Below, in pieces: positions 10,893-12,780 of a DNA stretch of 64,000 bases; position 1 is the first letter of the stretch, and every line of letters starts with the position of its first letter. A program made the position numbers and the translations under genes. Below the pieces are notes generated by a model. It worked only from the letters and a program-made list of their open reading frames with translations. It was not told where the DNA came from and ran no database searches. The stretch comes from an uncultured Parachlamydiaceae bacterium (lineage in GTDB: Bacteria > Chlamydiota > Chlamydiia > Chlamydiales > Parachlamydiaceae): contig CAVULX010000003.1 of assembly GCA_963742415.1 (NCBI GenBank), forward strand, positions 544,001 through 608,000, read 5' to 3'.

Positions 10893-12038
10893 TTAAATCC
10901 AGCACAATTTGGCTATTAAAGCCACTGTAAAGGGCCAATGGGTCGATTTAACACCAACAAATTTAAAGGCAATGTTGACGATCGTTAAAGTGATCAACGC
11001 GGGATAAGTGGTTTCCAACACAGGTCCAAGAAATTTGGCGATCCCGGCAAAGTCGAATGTAGAGACTATAAATCCAATTCCTAAAGTAATCAAAAGGGCT
11101 TGTTTATTTCCGATTTTATCCTGGGCGGCTTCACAACGAAGGAAATCGGCAAAAAGGGAAGTGAGCACAACCGCTGTCGTTAAGCAGGCAAAGATCACCG
11201 CTAGGCATATGCATGGAGCGGCAATGGGTCCCAACGATTCCATTGCAATGACTCCGAGCATTTCTTGCGGAGGGACATCTTTCAATAAAGGGGCGTAGAA
11301 GGAGCCCAACAAGGTTAGAGCTAGATAAACGATAGACAAAATACTTGCTCCAATGAAGGAAGCCTTATAAAAATGTTTGAGCAAAGAGGGAGTTTCTGAA
11401 TTAGAGCCTAGTTTATCATGGAGATGCTTGATGATGAATTGGGAAAAGAAAAAGGCGGCGATCAGGTCCATTGTTTGGTAGCCTTGAAAAAAACCTGTTT
11501 GCAAGGCCTTCCAACCCGTGGAAGTGATTGTTTCCTGAAAGGAAAAACCTTGTTTCAATCCAAAAAAGGCAATGAGGGCGATGGAACCGAGCAAAAACGG
11601 GGTGAGTACAGTTCCTAACATCGAGACGATTTTATTTTTATTGATCGTTAAAAAGTAGATGAGGGTGCATAACATGAAACTTGTCAAAGGAAGGGAAACT
11701 GAAGGCCATAATAACAATAAGGCGCCGTGGGCTACGGTCAAGCAGCGTGCGAGCACGCCAAAGGGACCCATTAAGGCAAGTGCTAAGAAAGAAAATAGAA
11801 AAGTTCCTTTTCGGCCAAAGCAGCTGAAAAAGTTGTATATGTTCCCTTTATAAAGCATCATCCCTAACACACCAAGAAAGGGAACTATAACCCCAGTAAA
11901 GATAAAACCGAGGATGGCGTAGAGATAGTGCCCCCCGCTTTGTTGTCCTGCCATGATGGGAAAAACGAGATTTCCCGACCCAAAAAACATCGAAAATAGG
12001 GCAAATCCTGTGCTTGCCGCAAGCTTATTATTTTTCAT
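10893..12038 (-). CDS. brnQ: Branched-chain amino acid transporter BrnQ
   Basis: 'GFALFSMFFGSGNLVFP', 'GYQTMDLIAAFFF', 'ACLTTA'. Confidence 0.95.
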   Translation of the reverse strand: MKNNKLAASTGFALFSMFFGSGNLVFPIMAGQQSGGHYLYAILGFIFTGVIVPFLGVLGMMLYKGNIYNFFSCFGRKGTFLFSFLALALMGPFGVLARCLTVAHGALLLLWPSVSLPLTSFMLCTLIYFLTINKNKIVSMLGTVLTPFLLGSIALIAFFGLKQGFSFQETITSTGWKALQTGFFQGYQTMDLIAAFFFSQFIIKHLHDKLGSNSETPSLLKHFYKASFIGASILSIVYLALTLLGSFYAPLLKDVPPQEMLGVIAMESLGPIAAPCICLAVIFACLTTAVVLTSLFADFLRCEAAQDKIGNKQALLITLGIGFIVSTFDFAGIAKFLGPVLETTYPALITLTIVNIAFKFVGVKSTHWPFTVALIAKLCWI

Positions 12039-12071
12039 TTTTATACCTCTTTAAATCTTGACATCCTAAAC

Positions 12072-12106
12072 AAAAAAAAACCGCACCTCTTGCGAGAGTG
12101 CGGTTT
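12072..12106 (-). terminator. Attenuator terminator upstream of brnQ
   Basis: Minus strand ccgcactct-cgca-agaggtgcgg followed by 9 T, 34 nt before the brnQ ATG. Confidence 0.85.
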
Positions 12107-12135
12107 AATACAACCTACAATTAGCCGAAGCCAAA

Positions 12136-12216
12136 TCACATAGGTCCGCACCTCCATTGGGCGTGGATAACAATAATTTGAATGGTAATCATCTCTATGT
12201 GATAAGAACAAAACAT
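12136..12216 (-). CDS. Putative Ile-rich leader peptide of brnQ attenuator (MFCSYHIEMITIQIIVIHAQWRCGPM; alternative start 12192)
   Basis: 6 Ile plus 1 Val within 11 codons; 3' end overlaps the antiterminator segment. Confidence 0.75.
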   Translation of the reverse strand: MFCSYHIEMITIQIIVIHAQWRCGPM

Positions 12217-12248
12217 AAATTCATTTGTTACTTGTAGTTAATTAAAAA

Positions 12249-12278
12249 AATATATCACATCAAGCATTTTTTATGCAA
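12249..12278 (-). promoter_or_regulatory. Putative sigma66/70 promoter for leader-brnQ
   Basis: TTGCAT-18 nt-TATATT with TG extension. Confidence 0.45.
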
Positions 12279-12318
12279 TCAATCTTTTTTGCTTAAAGTA
12301 AAATCTTTTATATTGCCA

Positions 12319-12780
12319 TTACAAATTAGATTTGGACAAAAATTTTTCACATTCAGCCTTGAGCTTTTTTTTGTCCTCAATCATTTGATAGGAAATGGAA
12401 TTTTTTGAGCAATAATCTCTCCATTTTTCATTGATTTTTTGAAATTGTTGATGGGGGGGGTATTCCAAATATTTATAAAATCTCTGATCGCGTTTTACAG
12501 ATTGACAATATAGGTTGATAAGGGATTCATCACCATATTCATTAATATATGTTTTGATATTCATTTGATATTTCCGCGTCACTCCATTTCTTGCTCTCCA
12601 TAACACGTCATCCCGTAGCTCACCTGAAGAGTTCGGAAACTGTTCTTTGACGAAATCATAGACGCGGCTTTCAATTGACTTGACGAGTTTATGGCATTCA
12701 TCATGGATGGCTTTTTCCCCATAACGGAGCCACTCTAACGCCAAATTGCCTTCTCCGCATACATAACATTTTAGTGTCAT
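12319..12780 (-). CDS. Hypothetical protein
   Basis: 153-aa ORF, N-terminal CxxC...HxxC. Confidence 0.6.
   Translation of the reverse strand: MTLKCYVCGEGNLALEWLRYGEKAIHDECHKLVKSIESRVYDFVKEQFPNSSGELRDDVLWRARNGVTRKYQMNIKTYINEYGDESLINLYCQSVKRDQRFYKYLEYPPHQQFQKINEKWRDYCSKNSISYQMIEDKKKLKAECEKFLSKSNL

Follow-up and report, generated by a model that had tools for sequence, protein, structure and literature searches.

A predicted ribosome-mediated attenuator with an isoleucine-rich leader ahead of brnQ in Parachlamydiaceae

In an uncultured Parachlamydiaceae bacterium, the gene brnQ, for a putative importer of branched-chain amino acids, is preceded by a leader that is very probably a classical ribosome-mediated transcription attenuator, set by charged tRNA-Ile and, to a lesser degree, by charged tRNA-Val. 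The leader lies in a stretch of 64,000 nucleotides (nt), here called the window (positions 544,001 to 608,000 of contig CAVULX010000003.1), and all of its features are read on the minus strand, from 12278 to 12072 of the window. An earlier note, made from the letters of this stretch, had proposed the same reading, and comparison among relatives supports it through an open leader frame, enrichment of Ile codons, mutually exclusive folds and covariation. By sequence, the element combines a leader open reading frame (ORF) with its own start and stop, clustered cognate codons, an intrinsic terminator, an antiterminator that excludes this terminator, and a placement of segment 1 and of the stop codon as in known attenuators. 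The parts are as follows.

12249..12278, minus strand: promoter-like site, with -35 TTGCAT (12278-12273), a spacer of 18 nt and a TG-extended -10 TGaTATATT (12257-12249)
12136..12216, minus strand: leader ORF of 26 codons plus UGA, MFCSYHIEMITIQIIVIHAQWRCGPM, with six Ile and one Val
12166..12189, minus strand: codons 10-17 (I T I Q I I V I), the run of regulatory codons
12160..12167, minus strand: segment 1, UCCACGCC, immediately 3′ of the last Ile codon (codon 17)
12141..12154, minus strand: segment 2, made of GAGGUGCGG (12154-12146) and ACCUA (12145-12141), spanning leader codons 21-26
12121..12134, minus strand: inner hairpin UUGGC-UUCG-GCUAA, which caps the antiterminator and can form in the terminated state too
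12113..12117, minus strand: UAGGU, 3′ strand of the middle helix of the antiterminator, partner of ACCUA at 12145-12141
12072..12103, minus strand: intrinsic terminator, with segment 3 CCGCACUCU (12103-12095), loop CGCA, segment 4 AGAGGUGCGG (12090-12081) and U9 (12080-12072)
10893..12050, minus strand: brnQ, with the Shine-Dalgarno-like AGAGG (12050-12046) and an ORF of 381 amino acids (12038-10893)

The central observation is a repeat. The first part of segment 2, GAGGUGCGG, repeats the 3′ arm of the terminator within the final codons of the leader ORF. The 9-mer GAGGTGCGG occurs at 12146-12154 and at 12081-12089, both on the minus strand and exactly where the earlier note had placed it, and there is no third copy in the window; in shuffled versions of the window, it is matched 0.22 times on average, and two or more matches are found in three of 100 shuffles. 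The note had further supposed that the leader copy captures the 5′ arm of the terminator and closes an antiterminator around a cUUCGg hairpin. This hairpin is indeed present at 12134-12121, and a comparison of the two alternative folds, which the note had suggested as a check, gives -21.4 kcal/mol for the antiterminator of the window and -18.1 kcal/mol for its terminator, whose helix contains a bulge. The whole leader of 186 nt folds with -48.4 kcal/mol (z = -2.8), and one of 200 shuffles folds equally well. The promoter-like site (12278-12249) and the leader ORF with clustered Ile codons (12216-12136, six Ile in 26 codons) are also found as described. A U9 terminator does precede brnQ, with 33 nt (34 in the note) between its U-run and the ATG of brnQ at 12038.

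The -10 element ends 32 nt before the leader ATG. A generic promoter scan, in which a spacer of 16-18 nt and at least four of six matches in each hexamer are demanded, does not list the site at 12249..12278 because TTGCAT matches at three of six positions only. One more Ile codon (codon 7, 12198-12196) precedes the codon run, and the stop codon (12138-12136) is located just 3′ of segment 2, 16 nt past its start.

From this arrangement, a mechanism can be proposed. Transcription would start about 25 nt before the leader ORF of 26 codons. While Ile-tRNA is plentiful, the ribosome would reach the UGA at 12138-12136 and cover segment 2 (GAGGUGCGGACCUA); segment 3 would then pair with segment 4, and RNA polymerase would terminate in the U9 tract upstream of brnQ. 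A ribosome stalled in the Ile/Val run (codons 10-17) would instead cover segment 1 and leave segment 2 free to capture segment 3, forming a three-tier antiterminator around the UUCG hairpin; no terminator would appear, and brnQ would be transcribed. If the leader is not translated at all, segment 1 would pair with segment 2, and the terminator would form. A bacterial ribosome covers about 12-16 nt on either side of its P site. With its A site on codons 10-17, it should reach at most to about 12155, with segment 1 covered and segment 2 free, while at the UGA it should cover segment 2 together with half of the inner hairpin; both positions give the arrangement that the classical model needs. Translation of the leader, termination at about 12072 and read-through upon Ile limitation are thus predicted from the sequence.

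For the comparison, a covariance model (R1) was built from ten copies of the element, which is visible even by eye upstream of the closest orthologues of the window brnQ in relatives. In the genome that contains the window (G000; 2.69 Mb in four contigs, 84% complete), R1 has a single match, the window element itself (E 2.6e-18). Within the same family, matches at E <= 0.01 are found in 27 of 73 genomes, and the search of loci gives 26 elements at E <= 1e-7 in 21 of the 73. At E <= 2e-6, the number of family genomes with the element is likewise 21. Six of the 27 genomes, with weak matches only (best E 6.2e-5 to 0.0078), are left out, and all counts out of 26 below refer to the elements of the 21 genomes.

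An ATG-initiated leader ORF of 20-30 codons is present in all 26 elements. Its frame is open over the last 20 codons in 26 of 26, while the other two frames are open in five and seven of them, and in every case the stop codon is reached 10-19 nt after segment 2 begins. Isoleucine accounts for 135 of 663 leader residues (20.4%, against 7.2% in the long ORFs of G000), and the same DNA encodes 39 and nine Ile in the other two frames. Most of these codons, 98 of 135, are ATT. The conservation of Ile codons and the covariation described below, which the earlier note had proposed to look for in relatives, are therefore both found, the latter above its controls.

The leader commonly ends in RCGPM. 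An arrest peptide of the TnaC or SecM kind, which would respond to free isoleucine or to some other signal within the ribosome and not to tRNA charging, could have such an end, and a tail ...W/x-R-C-G-P-M-stop, closing on Pro-Met-stop, is indeed seen in most elements. However, the tail is explained by the RNA of segment 2. An insertion of 1 nt in segment 2 (L048, L053) turns it into RVRIMH or RVRIRH with the RNA motif kept, and the frame shift to RGCE and the substitutions RSGSM, RCEPM and RCGLM likewise preserve the RNA and not the peptide. Because these frame-shifted variants lose the peptide and keep the nucleotides, the tail appears, on the sequences compared, to be a by-product of the RNA, and we regard the arrest peptide as highly improbable.

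The exclusive folds hold across the family as well. When the folded RNA starts at segment 2 and stops after the terminator 5′ arm, as it does before the 3′ arm is made, all 26 elements have the antiterminator as their minimum-energy fold: five to ten of the first ten bases of segment 2 pair with the terminator 5′ arm, and the middle helix and the inner hairpin are closed too. The energies of the two states are in the same range (-11.6 to -27.8 kcal/mol for antiterminators, -12.5 to -28.0 for terminators). Across the 26 elements, 93.2% of the cells of the terminator helix (3:4) are paired, and 91.6% of those of the stored structure (terminator plus inner hairpin). Pairs of the antiterminator (2:3) were counted on an alignment (A4) fitted to the terminator and the inner hairpin, not to the antiterminator. 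They reach 82.6% of cells, whereas slid partners do not exceed 51.8%. Nine pairs of the antiterminator are changed on both sides, and its covariation score of 0.256 (0.163 in shuffled alignments) is reached by none of 500 shuffles. Four of five pairs of the middle helix are changed on both sides, for example AUCUA/UAGAU, GCUUAUG/CAUAGC, GCCUG/CAGGU and UGAUG/CAUCA, and so are four of five pairs of the inner hairpin, in which 87.3% of cells are paired. At L071, an A of segment 2 stands opposite a U of segment 3 while segment 4 keeps G, so that the change is compensated solely in the antiterminator. The predicted anti-antiterminator, in which segment 1, UCCACGCC, pairs with GGUGCGGA, is formed in 85.8% of cells (at most 55.7% when slid), its changes being mostly one-sided G-U; when the leader is folded alone, 25 of the 26 elements pair segment 2 with leader RNA that precedes it.

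These data also bear on chance, that is, on an ordinary terminator of the upstream gene combined with an Ile-rich ORF that arose in A+T-rich intergenic DNA. The gene upstream (12319-12780, minus strand) runs in the same direction as the element with no other terminator in between, and ATT-rich DNA is common in G000. However, the element precedes brnQ or ilvB in many genomes with differing upstream sequence, the 9-mer is expected only 0.22 times per window, Ile is concentrated in one frame (135 against 39 and 9), and covariation supports the alternative pairing. Furthermore, among 1063 terminator-like hairpins of G000, 54 are ahead of long ORFs, and the brnQ leader alone combines a strong terminator with an antiterminator and an Ile-rich small ORF. 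Chance is contradicted by these comparisons and is, in our judgement, the least likely of the alternatives discussed here.

Within the family, 24 of 26 elements are directly upstream of a BrnQ orthologue, and the other two form a tandem pair (L049) before a gene for a protein of 265 residues with no Pfam match. In two of the genomes (L042, L047), the brnQ downstream of the element seems split into several ORFs, which could be a frameshift or an assembly error. In other families, 11 of 13 elements precede BrnQ orthologues of 54-74% identity, and in three genomes the element stands, often in tandem, before genes for the large subunit of acetolactate synthase (ilvB; L065, L074, L250). The product of the gene at L074 scores 715.7 bits on TIGR00118, above the cut-off, and the next ORF is small-subunit-like; the product at L065, behind tandem elements, scores 533.5 bits from an ORF cut by the end of the locus; and the ORF at L250, judged by eye, is very similar to these. 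As far as these sequences go, the scaffold appears to head the first gene of Ile/Val synthesis where the pathway exists and the importer elsewhere.

The same architecture is also found with other codons. Three weak R1 matches (L056, L057, L059) turned out to belong not to the R1 elements but to a sister class with Phe/Tyr-rich leaders such as MQRTKTAYFFFFFMLPTRREDC, with GAGGCGGG as segment 2 and a terminator CCCCGCC...GGCGGGG-U9. A covariance model of this class (R2) has matches in 19 of the 73 family genomes (loci L056, L057, L059 and L076-L093) and none in G000. At the 17 of 19 loci where the downstream ORF was analysed, ten ORFs are permease-like (the one tested has a match to Trp_Tyr_perm of Pfam with E 1.6e-67, the rest being assigned by their N-termini), four are hisC-like aminotransferases under the equivalog cut-offs, and three are DAHP-synthase-like (two tested, 125 bits, under the cut-offs). 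There are Val-leaning leaders as well. At L050, the leader reads VLVVVHV, and at L073, the tandem leaders before a second brnQ copy are rich in Val (...TVRVSVQVIVSH... and ...VVIQAVVVVNH...), while the first brnQ copy of the same genome (L066) has tandem attenuators whose proximal leader, the one that was read, is rich in Ile (five Ile, three Val). The difference between L073 and L066 hints, at the level of sequence, at sensing specific to each paralogue.

In these comparisons, the enriched leader codon appears to track the function of the regulated gene, Ile/Val going with brnQ and ilvB and Phe/Tyr with aromatic genes. Because the codon changes with gene function, the ribosome is the likely sensor, and this is the strongest argument for the attenuator. 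A real RNA switch could also be flipped by a protein, by tRNA in the manner of a T-box, or by a small ligand at the inner hairpin or the bulge, the ORF being incidental; the inner hairpin keeps its position among the elements, as does an A-rich stretch that links UAGGU to segment 3, and helix 1 of the antiterminator is almost invariant, as a binding site could be. However, a ligand sensor would not need a codon that varies with the regulated gene, an incidental frame is hard to reconcile with 26 open frames of 26 (against five and seven) and with a stop position fixed relative to segment 2 in all 26, and the sequence of the inner hairpin varies freely with compensation. No T-box or other Rfam match beyond chance level is found at E <= 10 either. 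A switch of this sort is thus very unlikely, though it is the least improbable of the alternatives considered.

Several points weigh against ribosome-mediated attenuation and should be stated together. Helix 1 of the antiterminator is near invariant (both-side change in one of nine pairs) and therefore offers little covariation, and the shuffle controls overstate significance because the sequences are related. One element (L034, one of 26) has no pairing between segments 1 and 2 in its minimum-energy fold. The leader ORF of the window has no clear Shine-Dalgarno sequence, some leaders (L035_1501, L046) have only three Ile, and the leaders are poor in Leu (5.0% of residues, compared with 10.5% in the long ORFs of G000), another substrate expected of a BrnQ carrier. 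The window BrnQ scores 194.1 bits on NCBIfam TIGR00796, under the curated cut-off of 243.4, and because of this its substrate is assigned only indirectly. Moreover, the mechanism presumes that transcription and translation are coupled in these organisms, and what argues for it is comparative sequence evidence.

In an order sample, the element is found in 13 of 150 genomes, in families f1, f3, f7, f18, f21, f33, f37, f42 and f44, eight of which are families other than that of the window, and a phylum-wide sample adds family f8; in the same phylum-wide sample, none of 26 genomes of family f35 has it. The f35 genomes have 1.0-1.2 Mb and, going by this size alone, are probably those of the classical pathogenic chlamydiae. 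Contigs of public genomes that contain the 16-mer of the element give at least 120 loci, mostly chance matches, and six of 100 tested by R1 have the full element. The titles of the full-element contigs include metagenome-assembled genomes (MAGs) of Parachlamydiaceae, Parachlamydiales and Chlamydiia, in line with the label "chlamydial" in the earlier note. One is titled uncultured Gammaproteobacteria; at L251, a MAG titled Gammaproteobacteria, the element lies before an ORF of 320 residues without a BrnQ match.

Several other R1 matches were set aside. A weak match at L054 is an ordinary terminator at a gene end; L055 (G010, 39 bits) has a different Ile-containing leader, found in one genome, and is kept outside the counts, as is the weak match L058. 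Matches of 28-40 bits are mostly the reverse strand of terminators with an A-run and a U-run and were dropped before counting. Terminators of this kind, both in the window (12072-12106) and in relatives, have the A-run upstream and the U-run downstream and look bidirectional.

Tandem arrangements occur as well. Two copies are present in five of the 21 family genomes (L035, L036, L040, L041, L049) and at three loci of the order sample (L065, L066, L067). The copies are homologous, stand in series 70-110 nt apart, and no separate promoter-like site precedes the second. Indeed, 14 of the 21 copies that are single or distal have a TG-extended -10 whose end lies 27-37 nt upstream of the leader ATG, and none of the five promoter-proximal tandem copies has one, as is expected if the latter are read from the promoter of the distal copy.

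It might also be asked whether the unit from promoter to terminator is an independent small gene, encoding a small RNA or a hydrophobic peptide of 26 residues that acts in trans, with brnQ expressed from elsewhere. The element does carry a promoter-like site of its own, its terminator is strong, and trans-acting RNAs derived from attenuators, as well as leader peptides, are reported in another bacterium (PMC7968998, PMC7298713, for the parts of these sources available here). However, the distance from the U-run to the brnQ ATG is only 33 nt, and the sole promoter-like match of the generic scan in this interval overlaps the brnQ start codon; the place directly before brnQ or ilvB is kept across families; the peptide loses its usual C-terminus in elements whose RNA motif has shifted frame; and the second tandem copies lack a promoter-like site. 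We give an independent gene little credit, less than the ligand- or protein-operated switch and slightly more than the arrest peptide, although a role of the leader in trans may exist beside its role in cis.

The regulated gene is clearly, as judged from its sequence, a member of the Branch_AA_trans / LIVCS carrier family (Pfam PF05525, E 3.8e-54, 184.7 bits, cut-off 22.3). Carriers of the BrnQ type are generally described as carriers of Leu, Ile and Val. G000 has three BrnQ-family genes, and in this assembly, 84% complete, no acetolactate synthase scores above its family cut-off (best 176.6 bits against 538.35). For that reason, the bacterium probably takes up its Ile and is not expected, by gene content, to synthesize it. 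The switch would then tie import of an amino acid to the charging of its tRNA in an organism that probably cannot make it, and it offers a handle on how environmental chlamydiae sense the nutrient supply of the host.

The principle resembles that of well-known systems. In Escherichia coli and Salmonella, the leaders of ilvGMEDA (ilvL) and ilvBN (ivbL) are leader-peptide attenuators with branched-chain codons. The chlamydial element shares with them a short leader ORF rich in such codons, the exclusive choice between 1:2 / 3:4 and 2:3 pairing, and a Rho-independent terminator before the first structural gene, and in relatives of the window genome the scaffold even heads acetolactate synthase genes. 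Unlike them, the window element has no match to an Rfam leader, targets an importer and is biased to Ile (and Val) with Leu depleted; in the family, it is tandem in five of 21 genomes, and the phylum is different. An Rfam search of 11800-12600 at E <= 10 gave eight matches at chance level, among them no amino acid leader and no T-box family, and the best match over the element (Betaproteobacteria_toxic_sRNA) covers the terminator only and scores 16.7 bits, where the gathering score is 50.

Within the phylum, a trpL attenuator has been predicted between trpR and trpB of Chlamydia trachomatis (Merino & Yanofsky 2005, cited in PMC3937554). According to the text of PMC3937554 at hand, its leader has 59 residues with three Trp and precedes salvage genes, its role is disputed, and a candidate attenuator is discussed for C. 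felis as well; the attenuation at the C. trachomatis trp locus was later assigned to the repressor YtgR (PMC7755916, same limit). Both trpL and the brnQ element would be leader-peptide attenuators of the same phylum that sense an amino acid obtained from the host, but there is no sequence relation between them.

More distant parallels exist. T-box leaders stand before amino acid transporter genes in Firmicutes (excerpt of PMC2494555) and likewise couple transporter expression to tRNA charging by a choice between terminator and antiterminator, but they bind uncharged tRNA directly, with no translation of a leader, and the element has no T-box match. In Firmicutes, leader-peptide attenuators for His have been found by comparative genomics, one of which is said to control a transporter (excerpt of PMC9413887). 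They are similarly lineage-specific and recognized by a codon-rich leader ORF, a terminator and an antiterminator, whereas amino acid, phylum and sequence differ. The mgtCBR leader of Salmonella has tandem attenuators that depend on leader ORFs and precede an operon containing a transporter (excerpt of PMC3641672). The tandem copies of the relatives also amount to two leader-ORF attenuators in series; unlike those of mgtCBR, they are homologous duplicates of one scaffold, and the window element is single.

As far as the excerpt of a 2010 survey tells (PMC2965389), almost no predicted attenuator of Chlamydiae had an associated function, and the phylum is treated as too sparsely sampled in the excerpt of another study (PMC4833913). 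A full-text literature search, with supplements and subscription journals outside its coverage, returned no brnQ leader and no attenuator of this sort in Parachlamydiaceae or environmental chlamydiae, in agreement with the earlier note, which knew of no description. Attenuators of this kind are known, and as far as the searches reach, it is the family, its importer targets and its phylum that are new. The mechanism itself is textbook; the advance lies in the distribution, the importer targets and the phylum, not in the principle. Nevertheless, the models R1 and R2 can be used for annotating the elements, and the leader codons may serve as a guide to the substrate of transporter paralogues.

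Only a small number of regulatory mechanisms have been described for chlamydiae. We see an even chance that the window element is one case of an order-wide, re-codable attenuator system, in which a single scaffold carries Ile, Val or Phe/Tyr leaders. Such a system would govern both uptake (brnQ paralogues, tyrP-type permeases) and what remains of biosynthesis (ilvB, DAHP-synthase-like and aminotransferase genes). If so, stalling of ribosomes at hungry codons would be a principal way in which these obligate intracellular bacteria read the amino acid supply of the host, and leader codons would predict the substrate preference of each BrnQ paralogue. Beside this system, leaders of two kinds that lack a terminator, namely the Val leaders (...VVVVR.AHI-stop) and those ending in ...IIGS-stop, may act through Rho or translation.

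The first kind precedes the second BrnQ paralogue of G000, where a leader ORF MLSSFVAVVVSAVVVVRFAHI followed by a stop has eight Val in 21 residues (L031:2730-2795, minus strand; contig C3, about 883015-883080, outside the window). Leaders of the ...VVVVR.AHI-stop type are found at nine of 16 orthologue loci of this gene. At L031 there is no U-run terminator, and a GUGCGC-UUC-GCGCAC hairpin overlaps the end of the ORF; the C-rich, G-poor tract after this hairpin may point to Rho-dependent or translational control.

The third BrnQ paralogue of G000 (L032:1273-1374, plus strand, contig C1) has a Thr-rich small ORF ending in ...STRTATATTGRGRTSTR and a stop, 123 nt upstream. The motif TAATTTnTTCCACCC is present 3′ of the stop codon both of this ORF and of the Val leader at L031. 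Among the hairpin loci of G000, three further candidates proved, on closer look, to be no attenuators, and a Lys-rich small ORF is found at C2:13361-13401 on the minus strand.

The second kind is seen in other genera of the family, where brnQ orthologues of 50-56% identity have a different Ile leader ending in ...IIGS-stop. A U-run terminator is absent, and the stop codon of this leader falls within or close to a hairpin UUGGCAG-N4-5-CUGCCAA. Leaders of this type are found at L096, L098, L101, L102, L103, L104 and L108 (also L011, L013, L015 and L018); in a pattern search for them, six of 13 matches fall within genes, and the other seven are of the leader kind.

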